From Mycolicibacterium smegmatis (lineage in GTDB: Bacteria; Actinomycetota; Actinomycetes; Mycobacteriales; Mycobacteriaceae): a DNA stretch of 32,000 bases. The DNA is taken from assembly GCF_001457595.1 (NCBI RefSeq), contig NZ_LN831039.1:1140001-1172000 (forward strand), in the 5' to 3' direction. The notes under the pieces were generated by a model. The model was given only the letters and a program-made list of their open reading frames with translations, made no database searches and was not told the DNA's origin. A program made the translations under genes and the position numbers. Below are positions 4,018 through 32,000 of the stretch, one piece after another (position 1 is the stretch's first letter; every line of letters starts with the position of its first letter).

Positions 4018-5628
4018 ATGCCTGCAGCCGATCTCGTTTTTTACGGCACCGTCATGACGGTGGACCCCGCCCGGCCCACGGCCGAGGCGCTCGCGGTGTC
4101 GGGCGGGCAGATCGTCGCCGTCGGCGACCGCGCCGACGTGGCGCAGTGGGTAGGCCCCGACACCGACGTGCGAGAGCTCGGAAATTCCTGTGTGGCACCG
4201 GGGTTCGTCGAGGCGCACGGTCATCCGTTGATGGAGGCCGTCGCGGTGTCCGACCGCATCGTCGACATCCGGCCGGTCACCCTCGGCACGGCCGACGCCG
4301 TCGTCGACGCCATCCACGCCGAGGTTGCCAAACGCGGTGCGGCAGGCGCATATCTGAACGGCTGGGATCCGTTGCTGCAAACCGGCCTGCCGGAGCCGAC
4401 ACTGGCGTGGCTCGACGGCATCGCACCCGAACACCCGTTGGTGATCCTGCACAACTCCGGGCACAAGGCGTTCTTCAACTCCGCGGCCGCACGCGCGGCG
4501 GGACTCACGCGTGACACGCCGGATCCCAAGGGCGCCAAGTACGGTCGGGACGCCAACGGCGACCTCGACGGCACGGCCGAGGAAAGCGCGGCCGTGTTCA
4601 CCCTGCTGGGCGGCGCGATCTCGGTCGCCGATTACCCGGCCATGCTGCGCGCCGAGTGCGCCCGCCTCAACCGTGCCGGGCTCACGACGTGTTCGGAGAT
4701 GGCGTTCGACCCGATGTTCCGCCCGCTGCTGGCGAATCTGCACGATCACCTGACCGTCCGGTTGCGCACCTACGAGATGTCCACCGCAGCACTGCACACC
4801 GATGCGCAACCGTTCGAGGGCGACGACGTGGTGCGCCAGGTCGGCATCAAGATCTGGGTCGACGGGTCACCGTGGATCGGCAACATCGACCTCACCTTCC
4901 CGTACCTGGACACCGACGCGACCCGGACCATCGGCGTCGTCCCCGGCTCGTGCGGACACGCCAACTACACCCCTGAGCAGCTCGCCGAGATCGTCGACAC
5001 GTACTACCCGCAGGGCTGGCAGATGGCGTGCCACGTGCACGGCGACGCCGGCGTCGACACCATCCTCGACGTGTACGAGAAGGCGTTGCGACGCTGGCCG
5101 CGCGACGATCACCGTCTGCGCCTCGAACACGTCGGGGCGATCACGCCCGAGCAGTTGCAGCGGGCCCACGATCTCGGGGTCACGTGCAGCCTGTTTGTCG
5201 ACCAGATCCATTACTGGGGCGACATCATCGTCGACGGCCTGTTCGGTGCGGAACGCGGCGAGCGCTGGATGCCCGTCGGCTCGGCCGTCGCCACCGGCAT
5301 GCGCGTCTCACTGCACAACGACCCACCCGTCACACCCGAGGAACCGCTGCGCAACATCGCGGTCGCTGCGACCCGCACCGCACCCAGCGGCCGCGTGCTG
5401 GCACCCGAGCAGCGCATCACCGTCGAGCAGGCGATCCGTGCGCAGACCATCGACGCGGCATGGCAGCTGTTCTCCGACGACGTCATCGGCTCACTCGAGG
5501 TCGGCAAGTACGCCGATCTCGTGGTGCTGTCCGCCGACCCGCGCGCCACCGAACCCGCCCGCATCGCCGATCTCGACGTGCAGGCCACGTTCCTGGCCGG
5601 CCGGCAGGTGTATCCGGCGCTCGGCTGA
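4018..5628 (+). CDS. Amidohydrolase-family metal-dependent hydrolase (Rv0552-like, YtcJ/amidohydrolase_3 type)
   Basis: 536 aa with APGFVEAHGHP (metal-binding HxH) and later HVHGD and LHNDPP motifs. It occupies the same position as Rv0552, upstream of menC. Confidence 0.85.
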   Translation: MPAADLVFYGTVMTVDPARPTAEALAVSGGQIVAVGDRADVAQWVGPDTDVRELGNSCVAPGFVEAHGHPLMEAVAVSDRIVDIRPVTLGTADAVVDAIHAEVAKRGAAGAYLNGWDPLLQTGLPEPTLAWLDGIAPEHPLVILHNSGHKAFFNSAAARAAGLTRDTPDPKGAKYGRDANGDLDGTAEESAAVFTLLGGAISVADYPAMLRAECARLNRAGLTTCSEMAFDPMFRPLLANLHDHLTVRLRTYEMSTAALHTDAQPFEGDDVVRQVGIKIWVDGSPWIGNIDLTFPYLDTDATRTIGVVPGSCGHANYTPEQLAEIVDTYYPQGWQMACHVHGDAGVDTILDVYEKALRRWPRDDHRLRLEHVGAITPEQLQRAHDLGVTCSLFVDQIHYWGDIIVDGLFGAERGERWMPVGSAVATGMRVSLHNDPPVTPEEPLRNIAVAATRTAPSGRVLAPEQRITVEQAIRAQTIDAAWQLFSDDVIGSLEVGKYADLVVLSADPRATEPARIADLDVQATFLAGRQVYPALG

Positions 5629-27443: not shown

Positions 27444-28040
27444 ATGGACACGTTCACGCTCGGTATGCCCCGGTGGCCGTTCCTGTTGCGGTTGTGGGGC
27501 CGTCACCCGCTGGTGCGCCCCGCCGATCGGGTCGAGGCATTCGCTGTCGTGCTGACCGTCGTCGTGATGCTGGTGACCGCGCCGATCGCCGCGGCGATCG
27601 GGACCACCGTCTACGACACCCGCCGCACGATGTACGCCGAGCAGGCGGACACACGCCGAACCGTCGCCGCCACCGTCATCGATGACGATGCCGCACAGGC
27701 GGTTCTGCGAACCAACACTGCCCTGATGCCGGCACGATGGTCCGTTGCGGGCGTCGAGCACACCGGGACCGTGGAGGTCGCGTCGACAGCGAAAACCGGT
27801 GATGTCGTGCAGATCTGGGTCGACGACCGCGGGGAGCGGACCTCAACGCCGACACCGATCGGCCTCGCTGCCGTGGAAGCGGTGACCGGCGCACTGGTCC
27901 TGTGGCTTGTCGTCGGCTGCATCCAGGGCGGTCTGCTCATGGCGACACGAGCCTTGTGCGACCGGGTCCGCTCGGCTGCCTGGCAGCGCGAACTCGACCA
28001 CCTCGCCGGTACCGACGGGTTTCACTACCCGACCCCATAG
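27444..28040 (+). CDS. Rv1733c-like conserved transmembrane protein
   Basis: Colinear with Rv1733c as I recall it: RHPLVRPADRVEAFAVV (RNPLVRGTDRLEAVVML), ATVIDD (ATVIDH), PARWSVAGVEHTGTVEV (PARWVVNGIERSGEVNA), GDVVQIWVDD (GDRVGIWVDS), and RVRSAAWQRELDHL (RVRNASWQHDIDSL). Two TM helices. Confidence 0.8.
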   Translation: MDTFTLGMPRWPFLLRLWGRHPLVRPADRVEAFAVVLTVVVMLVTAPIAAAIGTTVYDTRRTMYAEQADTRRTVAATVIDDDAAQAVLRTNTALMPARWSVAGVEHTGTVEVASTAKTGDVVQIWVDDRGERTSTPTPIGLAAVEAVTGALVLWLVVGCIQGGLLMATRALCDRVRSAAWQRELDHLAGTDGFHYPTP

Positions 28041-28045
28041 CGATC

Positions 28046-28092
28046 AAAAAAGGGGAGTACCGGCGCAGGAACCCAGACTGCGCCGGTACTCC
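28046..28092 (-). terminator. Intrinsic terminator (15-bp perfect stem plus T-tract on the - strand); possibly bidirectional
   Basis: GGAGTACCGGCGCAG-gaacccaga-CTGCGCCGGTACTCC at 28054-28092. The A6 run at 28046-28051 reads as CCTTTTTT after the stem on the - strand. It lies 6 nt after the + strand Rv1733c-like stop and about 120 nt after the - strand 39-aa gene. Confidence 0.8.
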
Positions 28093-28213
28093 GTGCACCC
28101 GCCCGCACCGATGTGCGAATTATGGATGCGTCGGTTTGGTCTTTCGCGAAATTGCGCGGTTACCGGCTCCGAAATCCGTCATCCGGAATTTCGGGTGTGG
28201 TGAGAGCCTGCCA

Positions 28214-28333
28214 TCAGCCCTTACGTTTGCGGATGATCGGCATGGACTCTTCGGCCTTGGCGCGCTTGATCGCTCGCCGCTCCTTGAGGGAGAGCTCAGG
28301 TTTTCGAAGGGTCTTACCGGATTTGTCAGCCAT
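28214..28333 (-). CDS. Very basic 39-aa protein (MADKSGKTLRKPELSLKERRAIKRAKAEESMPIIRKRKG)
   Basis: ATG at 28333 with a consensus SD (AAGGAG) 6 nt upstream. An AT-rich promoter region lies upstream and a canonical terminator downstream. About 72 percent G+C at third positions (hand count). The longer 91-aa track ORF is rejected. No family recognised. Confidence 0.6.
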   Translation of the reverse strand: MADKSGKTLRKPELSLKERRAIKRAKAEESMPIIRKRKG

Positions 28334-28419
28334 TGACGCTCCTTTTCCGAAGTGGCAACTGCTGGTCCGACCATACGTCAGAAAAAATAAAAATCCAGTC
28401 GGGCCGTTTTTTCGACGAG

Positions 28420-28460
28420 TTTGTCGGATCCGGACAACCCGACGCCGGTGCGTTGTCCGA
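28420..28460. promoter_or_regulatory. Array of TTGTCCG/CGGACAA half-sites in a divergent promoter
   Basis: TTTGTCGGATCCGGACAAC-ccgacgccggtgc-GTTGTCCGAT. CGGACAAC (28431-28438) and GTTGTCCG (28452-28459) form a perfect 8-bp inverted repeat. A third, imperfect copy (TTGTCGG) sits immediately upstream, around a CGGATCCG palindrome. Confidence 0.4.
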
Positions 28461-28534
28461 TTTCCGCAACCCTTTCCCGCACTCCGCACGAAGAATGAAA
28501 TTACAAAAAGAAAATTTCCTGAAATGGAGGCAAC

Positions 28535-29806
28535 GTGGTCGGCTACGGGCGCATCGACGGTGGGCCGCGGTCGGCGATCGTGGTCGGTGCCGGCACGGTC
28601 GGACTGTCGGCGGCGTGGTTCCTGCAGGAACGTGGTGTCGCCGTCACGGTCGTCGACCGGGTCGGCGTGGGCACCGGCGCGTCATGGGGCAATGCCGGGT
28701 GGATCGCGCCGGCGCTGACTGTGCCCGCCAACTCGCCGGCGATGCTGCGCGACGGCCTCCGCTCGCTGTTCGATTCGCAGGCGCCGCTGCACATCCCGCT
28801 GGCCGCGGACTCCGAACTCGCCAACTTCCTGATCCAGTTCGCCGCCAACTGTCGTCGCGCGTCATGGAAACGGGCGATACGCGCCAACGTCCCGCTCAAC
28901 GAGGAGTGCCTCGAAGCCTTCGATGTCCTGTTCGCCAACGGCGTCGACGCGCCTTTGACCGACGCACCCATCACCGCGTTGTTCAGCACCGCCGCCGAAG
29001 CCGAACGGATGATGCGTGATCTGCGCGCGCTCGAAGACGCCGGGCAGACGATTTCGGTCAGCGGACTGTCGGGCAGACAACTGCGCGACCAGGTTCCGCT
29101 GGCATCGCCGGCAATTGCCGCCGCACTGAACGTCAACGGCCAGCGCTACGTCGATCCGGGCCGGTTCGTGCAGGCGCTGCGACACGCGGTCGAGGAGCGT
29201 GGCGCCACGATGCGCACGATGGAGGTCTCCGACGTGTTGAGCTCCGGCAACGGAGTTCAGGTGTACCCCCGCATCGGCAAGTGGCTCACAGCCGACGTCG
29301 CGGTGGTCGCCACCGGCGCGTGGTTGCCGCGCCTGGCCGGTAGCCGCATCACCGTGCCGGTGCAGGCTGCGCGACGCTACTCGTTCACCGTGCCTGTCGA
29401 CCGTCCCATCCCCACGCCGATCTACCTGCCGGAGGCCGGGATCGCGTGCACGCCCCACAAGGGGGCACTGCGGGTCACTGGTGCCACCGAACTGCGCGAT
29501 CCCTATGAGCCGGCGATGCCGTCGCGCATCGGAGCCATGGTGGCCGCCGCCGAACCCCTGCTGGAGGGCGTGCGCTGGGCCGAGCGCAGCGACATCTGGG
29601 TCGGCCCAGGGGCTCTCACCCCAGACGGGCGGCCCCTGATCGGCGAGATGTCGCGCGGCGTGTACCTCGCCGGCGGTCATGGCATGTGGGGCCTGGCGCA
29701 CGGACCGGTGACCGGCAGGCTCCTGGCCGAGTACATCACCACCGGCAAGCAACCGGAGGCCCTACGACCGTTCGACCCGCTGCGCCGCACGGGTGCCGAC
29801 CCCTGA
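28535..29806 (+). CDS. FAD-dependent oxidoreductase (DadA-like D-amino-acid dehydrogenase / DAO family)
   Basis: N-terminal dinucleotide fold AIVVGAGTVGLSAAWFLQERGVAVTVVDR. The ASWGNAGW motif is typical of DadA-type enzymes. C-terminal GGHGMWGL. GTG start preceded by GGAGG. Confidence 0.85.
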   Translation: MVGYGRIDGGPRSAIVVGAGTVGLSAAWFLQERGVAVTVVDRVGVGTGASWGNAGWIAPALTVPANSPAMLRDGLRSLFDSQAPLHIPLAADSELANFLIQFAANCRRASWKRAIRANVPLNEECLEAFDVLFANGVDAPLTDAPITALFSTAAEAERMMRDLRALEDAGQTISVSGLSGRQLRDQVPLASPAIAAALNVNGQRYVDPGRFVQALRHAVEERGATMRTMEVSDVLSSGNGVQVYPRIGKWLTADVAVVATGAWLPRLAGSRITVPVQAARRYSFTVPVDRPIPTPIYLPEAGIACTPHKGALRVTGATELRDPYEPAMPSRIGAMVAAAEPLLEGVRWAERSDIWVGPGALTPDGRPLIGEMSRGVYLAGGHGMWGLAHGPVTGRLLAEYITTGKQPEALRPFDPLRRTGADP

Positions 29807-29837
29807 CGAAATGCTCCACAAAGAGAAAGGACCCGAA

Positions 29838-29981
29838 ATGACCAGCGTTGAACCACGTTCGATGCCGCGCCTGGCCGTCGAAGTACCCGATGACCTCATG
29901 GACCGCTCAGGCCACGTCGAGATGAAGACCGACATCGTCGTCGTGCTCGACGATGGCTCGCCGAGCTGCGACTGCCGATAG
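29838..29981 (+). CDS. Micro-ORF 1 (47 aa, acidic, ends ...SPSCDCR)
   Basis: ATG 7 nt after GAAAGGA. About 79 percent G+C at third positions (hand count). Located 32 nt after the oxidoreductase stop. No family recognised. Confidence 0.45.
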   Translation: MTSVEPRSMPRLAVEVPDDLMDRSGHVEMKTDIVVVLDDGSPSCDCR

Positions 29982-29993
29982 GAGGGGAAACCG

Positions 29994-30185
29994 ATGTCGC
30001 CCACTGCTCCGTCGCTCATGACGCTCACCAACCGACTCATGAAGGCCCACCACAGGATTCGCGAGCTCGAAGCCAGCGAGGCCGAGCTGCGCGAGAAAAC
30101 CAAGGTGCTCTGCGCCGTCATCGCCAAACTCACCACCGAGGTGCAGTCGCGTTCGGATGCCGAGCCGGTCATGGAGGACGCCTGA
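29994..30185 (+). CDS. Micro-ORF 2 (63 aa, predicted coiled-coil helix)
   Basis: Strong SD AGGAGGGG 5 nt upstream of the ATG. About 86 percent G+C at third positions (hand count). Heptad-like RIRELEASEAELREKTKVLCAVIAKLTTEV. The stop overlaps the next ATG. Confidence 0.6.
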   Translation: MSPTAPSLMTLTNRLMKAHHRIRELEASEAELREKTKVLCAVIAKLTTEVQSRSDAEPVMEDA

Positions 30186-30325
30186 TGACCGCCGAACTGT
30201 CGACAACCGACCAGACGCTCGGGATCGATCCCGATGCGGTGGACCGCCTCCTTCTCATCGCCCTTCAGCGATGGGAGTCCGATGGAGGTGCCGTCCCCCC
30301 TCGAATGGTCCGACAACACGAATGA
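30185..30325 (+). CDS. Micro-ORF 3 (46 aa; MTAELSTTDQTLGIDPDAVDRLLLIALQRWESDGGAVPPRMVRQHE)
   Basis: Not in the ORF track because it is under 60 aa. I translated it by hand and found no internal stop. The ATG overlaps the micro-ORF 2 stop (TGATG). Its TGA overlaps the GAGGAG SD of the next gene. Third-position G+C is only about 67 percent, so support is weaker. Confidence 0.4.
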   Translation: MTAELSTTDQTLGIDPDAVDRLLLIALQRWESDGGAVPPRMVRQHE

Positions 30326-30334
30326 GGAGACCAC

Positions 30335-31462
30335 GTGGACGTTTTGGAACGACTCGACCTCGACACCGTCCGAGAACTGTCGCAGCGGACCGACAGGCTG
30401 GGAGTGGTGTCGCTGTACTTCAATGCCGACCCTACCCAGAACCTGCAGGTGCAGGCCATCGATCTGAGAAACCGATACCGGTTGTTACATCGCCGCATGG
30501 AAGCCGATGGCTCCCAACGCTATCGGGACGTCGCCGCAGCGCTGGAGCGCCGCAGGCCGCTCATCGAGACCCTGATCACCGGAGTCGCGTCGGGCCGCGG
30601 GCGCATCATGTTCATCGGGTTGGACGGCGACTGGACCGTGCACTTCGAGTGTATGATGCCGGTGACCAACCGTGTGGTGCTCGACGACGGCCCTTTCATC
30701 CACCCGCTGGTGGAAGTTCTCGACGAAGGCCGCCCGGCCGGCGTCGTGGTGATCTCCGCCGACGATGCGCGGTTGCTGGAATGGCGCCTGGGCCAGCTGC
30801 AGGAGATCAGTCGCATCGCGCAGCCGTTCGGTCAGGCGCCGCACGAGCGGGCCGGCCAGATGCGCGAACAGCGCCAGGCCCGCGAGCGTGACGGCATGCA
30901 GCGATTCGTGACCCAGGTGACCGCGACCGCGACGGATCTCGCCGAGGAGCGTGGGTGGGAACGGATCGTGGTCAGTGGCGGGCAACGCTGGACCGAGCCG
31001 GCCAAGACGAGGTTCGGTCCTCCGCTGCGCGGCAAGGTGCTGGTGGACCGGGGCCTCGGCGGCCTCGACGACGCTGCGCTGACGGCCGCCGTCACCGCGC
31101 GTCTGCACCGGCAGCACAAGTACGACGAACAGCAACTGCTCGACTACTTGTGTGACGCCGGCGGGACCGGTGATGTCGCACTGGGCCTGTCCGAGGTCGC
31201 CGCCGCACTGAACGCAGGCAGGGTCGACCATCTGGTGTACGACCCGGCCGTGCGCTACGTGGGGTCCGTGGGTGCCGACGGGTCGCTGTACGCCGACGGT
31301 GAGATCGCGCCGCACAGTCACGCGGCGACGAAGGACTCCCGATTCACCGAGCGCCTCGTCGACCGGGCATTGGCCACCGGCGCGAGGATCAGCCCGGTGG
31401 AGGGCGCGGCCGGTGCGGTGCTGAAGGACGCCGCAGGCGTCGCGGCGGTGCTGCGCTGGTGA
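30335..31462 (+). CDS. eRF1/Pelota-like protein (bacterial baeRF-type; Rv2629-like)
   Basis: 375 aa, GTG start after GAGGAG. The layout matches eRF1/Dom34. A central-domain strand GVVVISADDARLLEW is followed by a Gln-bearing loop PFGQAPHERAGQMREQRQARER. It then has a GWERIVVSG strand, a C-domain GDVALGLSEVAAALNAGRVDHLVY, and a terminal GVAAVLRW (compare eRF1 GGIGGILRY). It is about the same length as M. tuberculosis Rv2629 (374 aa). Confidence 0.7.
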   Translation: MDVLERLDLDTVRELSQRTDRLGVVSLYFNADPTQNLQVQAIDLRNRYRLLHRRMEADGSQRYRDVAAALERRRPLIETLITGVASGRGRIMFIGLDGDWTVHFECMMPVTNRVVLDDGPFIHPLVEVLDEGRPAGVVVISADDARLLEWRLGQLQEISRIAQPFGQAPHERAGQMREQRQARERDGMQRFVTQVTATATDLAEERGWERIVVSGGQRWTEPAKTRFGPPLRGKVLVDRGLGGLDDAALTAAVTARLHRQHKYDEQQLLDYLCDAGGTGDVALGLSEVAAALNAGRVDHLVYDPAVRYVGSVGADGSLYADGEIAPHSHAATKDSRFTERLVDRALATGARISPVEGAAGAVLKDAAGVAAVLRW

Positions 31463-31509
31463 GTCCGGCCGTAATCCGCAGGGCCGCAACGTCGCACCCG
31501 GGTGACGGC

Positions 31510-31521
31510 CGACACGTGTCG
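31510..31521. promoter_or_regulatory. Perfect 12-bp palindrome CGACACGTGTCG upstream of the TspO gene
   Basis: Read directly. It ends 30 nt upstream of the ATG at 31552. Confidence 0.3.
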
Positions 31522-31551
31522 AAAAGGCGTACAGCGGGTACTAGTTGACGC

Positions 31552-32000
31552 ATGCGACCGATCACCTTGGCCAAGACAGCATCTGCAGTAATCGCGACGG
31601 GAGTCGTCGGCGGGCTCGCGAGCCGCGGGTCACAGACTGCCTGGTATCAGTCGCTGCGCAAGCCGTCGTTCCAGCCGCCGCCTGCGGCGTTCCCGATCGC
31701 GTGGAACCTGCTGTACGCCGATATCGCGTCGACGTCGGCCCACACCATCGACAAGTTCCAGGAGCAGAACCGTGACGACAAGGCCCGCGCCTATTCGGTG
31801 GCTTTGGCCGCCAACCTGATCCTCAATGCGAGCTGGTCGTGGATCTTCTTCAACCGCGGCAAGCTCGGCACCGCTGCCATCGCGGCCGGGGCGCTCGCGG
31901 CCAGCAGCGCCGACCTCACCCGTCGTGCGGTCGACGCGCAGGGCGCACGCGGTGCGATCCTCGCGCCCTACCCGCTGTGGTGCACGTTCGCGACGGTGCT
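31552..32000 (+). CDS. tspO: TspO/MBR family tryptophan-rich sensory protein (partial, runs off the right edge)
   Basis: Translated by hand: MRPITLAKTASAVIATGVVGGLASRGSQTAWYQSLRKPSFQPPPAAFPIAWNLLYADIA...NLILNASWSWIFFN...APYPLWCTFATV. This shows the W..L.KP.w.PP...F..vW..LY and N..WS..FF signatures. It is absent from the track because no stop lies in the window. Confidence 0.8.
   Translation, partial: MRPITLAKTASAVIATGVVGGLASRGSQTAWYQSLRKPSFQPPPAAFPIAWNLLYADIASTSAHTIDKFQEQNRDDKARAYSVALAANLILNASWSWIFFNRGKLGTAAIAAGALAASSADLTRRAVDAQGARGAILAPYPLWCTFATV

Follow-up and report, generated by a model that had tools for sequence, protein, structure and literature searches.

A known ribosome hibernation factor, Balon, and three conserved small genes that precede it in Mycolicibacterium smegmatis

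Introduction

In a 32,000-nt stretch of Mycolicibacterium smegmatis DNA (the window, to whose positions all coordinates refer unless another locus is named), a gene for a 375-aa protein is preceded by three very short open reading frames (ORFs), here called m1, m2 and m3. The locus raises the question of what the long gene encodes, whether the micro-ORFs before it are genes at all and, if they are, whether they serve its product. An earlier interpretation made from the DNA letters alone (the sequence-only reading) had taken the long gene for an "Rv2629-type" release factor relative with no established biochemical function, possibly acting in ribosome rescue, and had proposed the small proteins as its partners in an undescribed system. 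We show here that the 375-aa gene encodes Balon (MSMEG_1130), an already characterised mycobacterial ribosome hibernation factor. What is new is the set of three conserved small genes before Balon, which are annotated only as hypothetical proteins. We consider it likely that the locus combines Balon with compacted, selected and coupled small genes of a cluster whose other members are a DAO gene (FAD-dependent D-amino-acid-dehydrogenase-like), GreA-like genes and a DUF5994 gene.

Results

The 375-aa gene encodes Balon

The 375-aa protein aligns from end to end (residues 1–375 on 1–375, ~97% identity, E 1e-241) with chain z of PDB entries 8V9J and 8V9L, cryo-electron microscopy (cryo-EM) structures on the ribosome entitled "Ribosome hibernation factor Balon (MSMEG_1130)". 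These entries represent the same protein from another M. smegmatis strain: the length of 375 aa, the GTG-start N-terminus and a 12-aa loop deletion are common to both, and a few substitutions differ. A further M. smegmatis protein is 99% identical. The NCBIfam model of the MSMEG_1130 family (NF052288) scores 577.5 bits against a cutoff of 480, with residues 5–375 on profile positions 1–387, whereas the Rv2629 family (NF052289) reaches only 33.1 bits, below its cutoff of 320; the label "Rv2629-type" has therefore to be dropped. The Pfam model baeRF_family10, which describes an aeRF1-like middle domain, matches residues 120–261 at 124.5 bits (cutoff 27.1) and, together with the PDB match, bears out the three-domain aeRF1-like layout that had been read from the sequence. 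The profile comparison suggested at that time gave a divided answer, positive for the baeRF families through baeRF_family10 and negative for Pfam eRF1_1/2/3, none of which matched at E ≤ 1.

The function of Balon has been in print since 2024 (Helena-Bueno et al., Nature 2024; PMC10901736). According to that work MSMEG_1130 binds the A site of M. smegmatis ribosomes, recruits EF-Tu and cuts in-vitro translation about 15-fold, and both the cryo-EM complexes and the in-vitro inhibition used MSMEG_1130 alone; an association of Balon with stationary phase is stated in PMC13393426. The view that no biochemical function was established is thus out of date, given the cryo-EM structures (8V9J, 8V9L) and the published mechanism, and the central protein of the supposedly undescribed system is the published Balon. 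From its 97% identity to the mc2155 protein we assume that A-site and EF-Tu binding and inhibition of translation hold for the window protein as well. This aeRF1-derived factor would bind the ribosomal A site with EF-Tu(GDP), touch the decoding and peptidyl-transferase centres, and silence ribosomes in stationary phase and stress. The identity with Balon confirms the earlier idea of a bacterial aeRF1-like ribosome-binding dormancy factor and contradicts that of a ribosome-rescue or peptidyl-tRNA-hydrolysis module, since this is a hibernation factor of a family without GGQ and NIKS. Balons, MSMEG_1130 included, are described as lacking both motifs (PMC10901736). In the window protein NIKS is absent, the relevant loop reads PFGQAPHERAGQ with no GGQ there, and the sole literal GGQ lies at residues 213–215, in a column that varies among family members (GGx, where x is Q, P, E or D).

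Compared with aeRF1 and Pelota (Dom34), Balon has a common three-domain fold ancestry and likewise binds the A site alongside a translational GTPase. The window protein differs from them in having no NIKS, no catalytic GGQ and no match to Pfam eRF1_1/2/3, and Balon silences ribosomes instead of releasing peptides or rescuing stalled ribosomes. Rv2629 of M. tuberculosis (NCBIfam Rv2629_fam_RHF) is likewise an aeRF1-like A-site hibernation factor, treated in the literature as the closest M. tuberculosis counterpart of Balon (PMC10901736), but it belongs to a separate NCBIfam equivalog family and has a different genomic context from the window gene. As an observation apart, yeast two-hybrid work reported that gp35 of mycobacteriophage Giles binds MSMEG_1130 residues 55–154 (PMC5705681), a possible phage–Balon interaction.

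The M. smegmatis protein departs from its own family at one point. A 12-aa segment, IGGGPxGQFHTP, between HERAGQ and MREQRQ is absent from both the window Balon and the PDB 8V9J protein, while it is nearly invariant and present in 15 of 15 other MSMEG_1130-family members aligned, M. goodii included. We treated HERAGQ-IGGGPxGQFHTP-MREQRQ as a conserved family feature, which is not a curated criterion. The deletion falls at residues 175/176 (nt ~30859/30860), in the middle-domain loop where aeRF1 carries GGQ. The PFGQ...AGQ loop that had been put forward as the counterpart of GGQ is this same loop, shortened by a deletion specific to M. smegmatis. Judged by alignment, M. smegmatis Balon, which serves as the structural model, is a deletion variant and atypical of its family.

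Three micro-ORFs fill the interval before Balon

The interval between DAO and Balon and its surroundings are laid out as follows; L numbers denote orthologous loci, which were retrieved via Balon and m2 homologues.

28535..29806 (+): DAO, FAD-dependent D-amino-acid-dehydrogenase-like gene, MSMEG_1129 orthologue (Pfam DAO, 183.7 bits)
29825..29831 (+): Shine-Dalgarno (SD)-like GAAAGGA for m1, 6 nt 5' of the m1 ATG; AAAGGAC conserved in L002 and L004
29838..29981 (+): m1, micro-ORF, 47 aa, ATG start
29980..29985 (+): SD AGGAGG for m2, overlapping the m1 TAG stop; conserved in L002
29994..30185 (+): m2, micro-ORF, 63 aa, ATG start
30173..30178 (+): SD-like GGAGGA for m3, within the m2 3' end; ATGGAGGA conserved in L002 and L004
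30185..30325 (+): m3, micro-ORF, 46 aa, ATG start
30324..30329 (+): SD GAGGAG for Balon, overlapping the m3 TGA stop
30335..31462 (+): Balon, 375 aa, GTG start, MSMEG_1130-family ribosome hibernation factor, aeRF1-like
31552..32000 (+): TspO/MBR gene, MSMEG_1131 orthologue (Pfam TspO_MBR, 109.7 bits), continuing past the window end

The m1 stop and the m2 start are 12 nt apart, m2 and m3 share one base (TGATG), and 9 nt separate the m3 stop from the Balon GTG. SD-like motifs stand 6–9 nt 5' of all four starts, and two of them overlap the preceding stop codon. Direct reading of the DNA upheld every ORF coordinate, junction and SD site claimed for this interval. In the mc2155 annotation MSMEG_1129 runs to 1191243 and MSMEG_1130 begins at 1191772; the micro-ORFs, at about 1191275–1191762, occupy the 528-nt "gap" that appears between them. 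Identical copies of all three of their products are listed as hypothetical proteins among the NCBI records of M. smegmatis. The account of Balon in PMC10901736 does not mention them: the word "upstream" does not occur there, and its operon passages list other neighbours.

The micro-ORFs are coding genes under purifying selection

The presence of an ORF is not significant here, since 37 ORFs of at least 30 aa occur in 3.5 kb of this 67% GC DNA; because chance often produces ORFs as short as these in such DNA, the reality of the micro-ORFs needs comparative evidence. The order DAO, m1, m2, m3, Balon or its remnant, and TspO recurs in M. goodii (L002/3, Balon 86% identical to that of the window), L004/5 (72%), L012 and L013–15, and in the M. 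smegmatis-like metagenome contigs L016 and L018; L017, a 1-kb M. smegmatis-like fragment, holds m1–m3 and the 5' end of Balon. In six genomes, from four or five lineages, none of the three micro-ORFs is disrupted. Pairwise synonymous divergence (dS) reaches 0.5–1.1, yet indels are in frame throughout, all of them multiples of three. Conservation extends to the start codons, which are ATG or GTG, to the SD motifs, and to the overlap of the m2 stop with the m3 start, which reads TGATG, ATGA or GTGA.

Ratios of nonsynonymous to synonymous divergence (dN/dS) were obtained pairwise by the Nei-Gojobori method, and for the micro-ORFs also as maximum-likelihood (ML) omega in a six-taxon codon-model likelihood-ratio test (M0, our own implementation, one assumed topology), with p given against omega = 1:

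m1: pairwise dN/dS 0.17–1.1; ML omega 0.19, p 8e-9
m2: pairwise dN/dS 0.20–0.37; ML omega 0.13, p 1e-14
m3: pairwise dN/dS 0.05–0.42; ML omega 0.21, p 1e-9
Balon: pairwise dN/dS 0.20–0.33
DAO and TspO flanks: pairwise dN/dS about 0.1

In frame controls on the same columns the proposed frame had the lowest omega of the six and no stop columns. The antisense shadow frame gave 0.24–0.31 with stops, and the other four frames 1.4–3.9. Judged from these substitution patterns, m1–m3 are shown to be genuine protein-coding genes under purifying selection. The comparison of order, overlaps and selection in relatives that the sequence-only reading had called for thus came out in its favour in every lineage that carries the three micro-ORFs, and the junction geometry is typical of translational coupling.

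These data bear on two ways in which the micro-ORFs could fail to be genes. The first is that they are functionless debris left by gene deletion, which happens to have stayed open in GC-rich DNA and is called as genes by automatic annotators. Beyond the abundance of chance ORFs, this would fit the likely derivation of m1 and m3 as fragments of larger proteins (see below), the deletion-prone nature of the locus, with its Balon losses and the 12-aa Balon loop deletion, the lower GC content at third codon positions of m3 (0.66 against 0.85 in its neighbours), and the finding of no expression data in small-protein or ribosome-profiling (Ribo-seq) supplement text or in the transcription start site (TSS) map. 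Debris would not be expected to show omega far below 1, in-frame indels at the divergence seen here, conserved start codons and SD motifs, or frame-shift controls that behave as for real coding sequence; moreover, it is Balon and not the micro-ORFs that acquired stops and frameshifts. We regard this explanation as very improbable. The second is that the real gene is a 190-aa antisense ORF, 29762–30334 (−), the longest ORF of the region, which spans all three. It is a typical shadow frame for m1 and m2, whose third codon positions coincide with its own, its omega lies above that of the sense frame, stop codons interrupt it in other lineages, and in independent genomes it is the plus-strand ORFs that gene callers picked. 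We give it practically no credence, the frame controls having ruled it out.

The small genes appear to descend from a larger cluster

Insight into the origin of m1–m3 comes from loci L006–8, whose Balons are 62–64% identical to that of the window. There the DAO–Balon interval consists of two GreA/GreB-like genes, a gene of 125/126 aa and a DUF5994 gene of 196 aa, the stop codon of which touches the start of Balon or overlaps it. Collinear DNA blocks connect the window with L007/L008 at the DAO 3' end, m2, the m3 motif, and Balon with its upstream 15 nt; two of them map as follows.

m2 block: window 29991–30154 to L008 1695–1858
m3 block: window 30256–30294 to L008 2885–2922

The sequence TGAGG is conserved at both the m3/Balon and the DUF5994/Balon junctions.

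Of the three proteins, m2 has the clearest family. Word-index searches with m2 and m3 returned only very close relatives; a HMMER profile search for m2 over 1.84 billion representatives revealed a family, unnamed and not in Pfam or NCBIfam, with 63 members at E ≤ 1e-3 and 31 at E ≤ 1e-10. Nearly all are 50–147 aa long (three outliers have 199–621 aa). Their conserved core occupies the N-terminal ~48 aa (MSPTAPTF.TLN..L.KAH.RIRELEA.E.EL......LCAVI.ELT), and in most members the match begins at residue 1 or 2; the C-terminal tails are highly variable. The window protein has all invariant residues of the 31-sequence family alignment and matches the first 57 aa of the 125/126-aa L007/L008 proteins (56–60% identity, tblastn E 1e-16 to 1e-18). 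Because most relatives carry the core at the N-terminus followed by variable tails, m2 is a normal-sized family member and not a stump. AlphaFold2, run on the 31-sequence alignment, predicts a single helix over residues 8–56 (mean predicted local distance difference test score 89), in agreement with the long helix foreseen by the sequence-only reading. A distant relationship to the SCO5555 family (NF052446), itself uncharacterised small proteins of Streptomyces of ~65 aa and so similar in size, may exist on the evidence of profile scores: m2 gives 16.5 bits (E 0.0057, below the cutoff of 40), and 17 of the 31 m2-family members give weak matches to the model, the best at E 2e-4.

The product of m3, with the pattern STxDQxLG...IALQRWES[DE]GGAV, corresponds to the C-terminal tail of a DUF5994 protein. 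It aligns to residues 139–175 of the 196-aa DUF5994 proteins of L007/L008, ALQRWESDGGAV included (tblastn E 1e-5 to 1e-6), a region that lies beyond the Pfam DUF5994 domain (PF19457; residues 24–133), and no m3 variant matches that Pfam model at E ≤ 10. Like DUF5994 proteins with an IALQRWE[SA][DE]GGA tail, m3 stands directly before Balon; unlike them, it is without the whole Pfam domain and has its own start codon overlapping the m2 stop. The W-E-S-D-G-G motif noticed earlier proved to be conserved, as W-E-S-[DE]-G-G, in every lineage sampled. Two m2-family representatives are chimeras of the kind that connects m2 with this tail, P0152 having the m2 helix fused directly to ALQRWESE and P0156 having the m2 helix, the DUF5994 N-terminus and then ALQRWESDGGAV; they point to recurrent deletions that removed the DUF5994 domain and kept the tail. 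An uncalled small ORF ending ...AAIAIQRWEAEGGALGAISHS was also seen at ~5130–5220 (+) of L019, downstream of a full DUF5994 gene with a WEADGG tail, which implies that the tail motif exists as a stand-alone peptide elsewhere too. We considered m3 as an Rv0078B/MenA1-type antitoxin (PF18993) and rejected it: one of nine variants matches, with 14 bits (E 0.054) against a cutoff of 27.1, and PDB sequence and profile searches with m3 returned no antitoxin chain. DUF5994 as a MenT1 toxin partner was rejected as well, Rv0078A being a DUF1814 protein.

For m1 the ancestry is less clear. Its MTSVEP...VEVPDDLMD resembles the N-terminus of the first GreA-like protein, MTSTEP..(16 aa)..IEVPDDFMD, with an hhalign probability of only 49% (E 1.7e-4 over 16 columns), and m1 has no Pfam match to the GreA/GreB domains (PF01272/PF03449). 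It sits where the first of the two tandem GreA/GreB-like paralogues (PF01272) of other mycobacteria follows DAO and has their MTS.EP and EVPDD[LF]MD motifs, but at 47–59 aa, against 160–200 aa, it is without the GreA_GreB domain. We take m1 to be probably a heavily deleted remnant of the ancestral cluster's first GreA/GreB-like gene. The terminal CxC that had been pointed out in m1 is not conserved; only one Cys is invariant across lineages. None of m1–m3 matches a Pfam, NCBIfam or PADLOC family, PADLOC defence models match no protein of the cluster, and in the literature we found no paper with DUF5994 or MSMEG_1126–1129 in its main text.

Taken together, these alignments lead us to infer that m1–m3 arose by compaction of a larger ancestral cluster through deletions. 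Compaction by deletion is favoured because several divergent lineages have the long forms and a single tight clade has the short one.

The m2 family follows DAO and the GreA-like genes rather than Balon

The loci examined are composed as follows.

Window, L002/3, L004/5: DAO present; m1 remnant; m2 present; m3 tail only; Balon intact
L012: DAO present; m1 remnant; m2 present; m3 tail only; Balon a frameshifted remnant
L013–15: DAO present; m1 remnant; m2 present; m3 tail only; Balon with TAG and deletion
L006–8: DAO present; GreA-like in two copies; m2 of 125/126 aa; DUF5994 full gene; Balon intact
L019/20: DAO present; GreA-like in two copies; m2 of 63 aa; DUF5994 full gene; Balon absent
L021: DAO present; GreA-like in one copy; m2 of 50 aa; DUF5994/tail absent; Balon absent
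L009: DAO present; GreA-like in two copies; m2 absent; DUF5994 fragment downstream; Balon intact
L010, L011: no DAO; no GreA-like; m2 absent; DUF5994/tail absent; Balon intact

This distribution indicates that the m2 family tracks DAO and the GreA-like genes, not Balon. DAO lies upstream of m2-family genes in all locus types examined and forms the conserved upstream anchor of the cluster, and on the downstream side the M. smegmatis clade has TspO as its conserved neighbour, with the position kept in L002, L004, L012 and L013.

The Balon paralogue is inactivated independently in two close relatives. At L012:4353–4480 it is a frameshifted 40-codon remnant in which the first 26 codons are joined to the last 14; in L013–15 (L013:3367–4359) an in-frame TAG interrupts it at about codon 48, and residues 280–338 are deleted. 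Despite this, the micro-ORFs, DAO and TspO are all intact in both, and the dN/dS of concatenated m1–m3 is still 0.25–0.33. The same region has recombined: TspO of L002 (4254–4739) and of L012 (4596–5081) are nearly identical with dS 0.00, whereas DAO of M. goodii (L002) and L012 differ by dS 0.35 and the micro-ORFs by dS of about 0.7, which places a recombination breakpoint inside the Balon/micro-ORF interval.

Two further explanations are affected by these observations. One holds that m1–m3 are dedicated to Balon as its partners, adaptors or inhibitors, and might for instance tune hibernation by binding it or the Balon–ribosome–EF-Tu complex. The genes do lie close together in one direction, with coupled junctions, and the m3 stop falls within the Balon SD; the m3/Balon junction is conserved in three lineages and in the DUF5994–Balon pairs of L006–8; and m2 and m3 have dN/dS similar to that of Balon. 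Set against this are the persistence of selected micro-ORFs in the two lineages with independent Balon loss, the m2 family with DAO and GreA-like genes but without Balon in L019 and L021, the Balon orthologues without micro-ORFs in L009, L010 and L011, and the published complexes and inhibition, for which MSMEG_1130 alone was used (PMC10901736). We think dedicated partnership unlikely. The other makes m1–m3 cis-acting upstream or leader ORFs, in which the act of translation would set Balon output by coupling or stalling and the peptides would be functionless. SD-over-stop and stop/start overlaps are classic coupling geometry, and short ORFs do serve as attenuators in mycobacteria (bioRxiv 10.1101/834739); but it is the amino acid sequences that are under purifying selection (omega 0.13–0.21 in the coding frame), m2 belongs to a protein family conserved over about 60 clusters, the ORFs are retained in loci that have no Balon for them to regulate, and they contain no regulatory codon runs. 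Leader ORFs strike us as distinctly improbable. The distribution argues against both an obligate Balon partnership and a pure leader-peptide role, and the roles of partner, adaptor, inhibitor or leader peptide that the sequence-only reading had offered are left unsupported, the small genes being kept without Balon and Balon without them.

Expression and neighbourhood

RNA-seq values, in reads per kilobase per million, were 38–82 for MSMEG_1130 and, in the first four samples, about 6 for MSMEG_1129; this difference, about 9-fold, suggests a promoter downstream of the DAO start. The leaderless TSS of TspO (MSMEG_1131) has been mapped in mc2155. Promoter and terminator scans of 27800–32000 gave no sites, and an Rfam scan of 29500–30500 nothing significant.

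Upstream of DAO and divergent from it lies a small ORF for a highly basic 39-aa protein (MADKSGKTLRKPELSLKERRAIKRAKAEESMPIIRKRKG; MSMEG_1128 orthologue) at 28214–28333 (−), which is conserved in L003, L004, L012, L013 and L019 and has a TSS mapped in mc2155. Several relatives carry Rv1733c-like genes (Pfam PF27099) and an extra DUF5994 gene 5' of the DAO cluster, at the following positions.

L004:1–504, Rv1733c-like/extra DUF5994 region
L013:183–848, Rv1733c-like/extra DUF5994 region
L019:1–342, Rv1733c-like/extra DUF5994 region

Rv1733c is a DosR-regulon membrane protein in M. tuberculosis, and these neighbours suggest a dormancy-gene neighbourhood. A search for the DosR box GGGACNNNNGTCCC with at most one mismatch found none near the locus and a single match in the window, which is within chance expectation.

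Discussion

We postulate that the ancestral cluster comprised DAO, two GreA/GreB-like genes, an m2-family helix protein, a DUF5994 gene with a WES[DE]GG tail, and Balon. In the M. smegmatis clade m1 would probably retain the N-terminus of the first GreA-like protein and m2 the whole conserved family core, while m3 would retain only the DUF5994 tail and would have gained its own start codon coupled to the m2 stop; Balon would inherit the old DUF5994–Balon junction. Because SD motifs sit over or next to the preceding stop codons, the four cistrons are most likely translated one after another on a single mRNA, through termination-reinitiation coupling. Functionally, the small proteins would belong to the DAO/GreA-like/m2/DUF5994 stress cluster and not be specific to Balon. 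The recurrent joint retention of the m2 helix and the WExDGG tail, m2–tail fusions included, suggests these two as a minimal working pair.

Several points weigh against this account. No TSS is mapped for MSMEG_1129 or MSMEG_1130 (Martini 2019), and the searchable text of the small-protein and Ribo-seq supplements contains no Ribo-seq or proteomic record of the micro-ORFs (Shell 2015). The micro-ORF architecture is limited to four or five closely related lineages, and the omega tests cover 43–62 codons each, with our own M0 and one topology, in a region with recombination. The link of m1 to the GreA-like proteins is weak (the hhalign probability of 49% given above), and the polarity of the change, deletion as opposed to insertion or fusion, is a reading by parsimony. 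The Balon losses of L012 and L013–15 may be too recent to show relaxed selection on the micro-ORFs, so that these could still depend on Balon, and the tight coupling geometry into Balon would still fit a functional link within the M. smegmatis clade.

A bolder proposal, to which we assign a small chance, is that the m2 helix and the WE[SA][DE]GG tail (m3) form an undescribed but conserved pair of mycobacterial small proteins, the minimal core of a DAO/GreA-like/DUF5994 dormancy cluster, which could connect transcription factors, namely the GreA-like paralogues, or Balon physically to a common stress signal; in M. smegmatis the pared-down pair would then modulate the loading or release of Balon.

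For work on mycobacterial hibernation, the 528-nt "intergenic" gap before MSMEG_1130 in the mc2155 annotation holds three conserved, apparently coupled small genes, and whoever knocks out MSMEG_1130, targets it with an antisense construct or complements it from a plasmid may be removing or retaining m1–m3 without knowing it. The structural model for mycobacterial Balon is an atypical member without the nearly invariant 12-aa loop, and close relatives have repeatedly lost this Balon paralogue. Uncharacterised but conserved, the m2 family and the WExDGG tail are small-protein elements of value to the study of mycobacterial hibernation.

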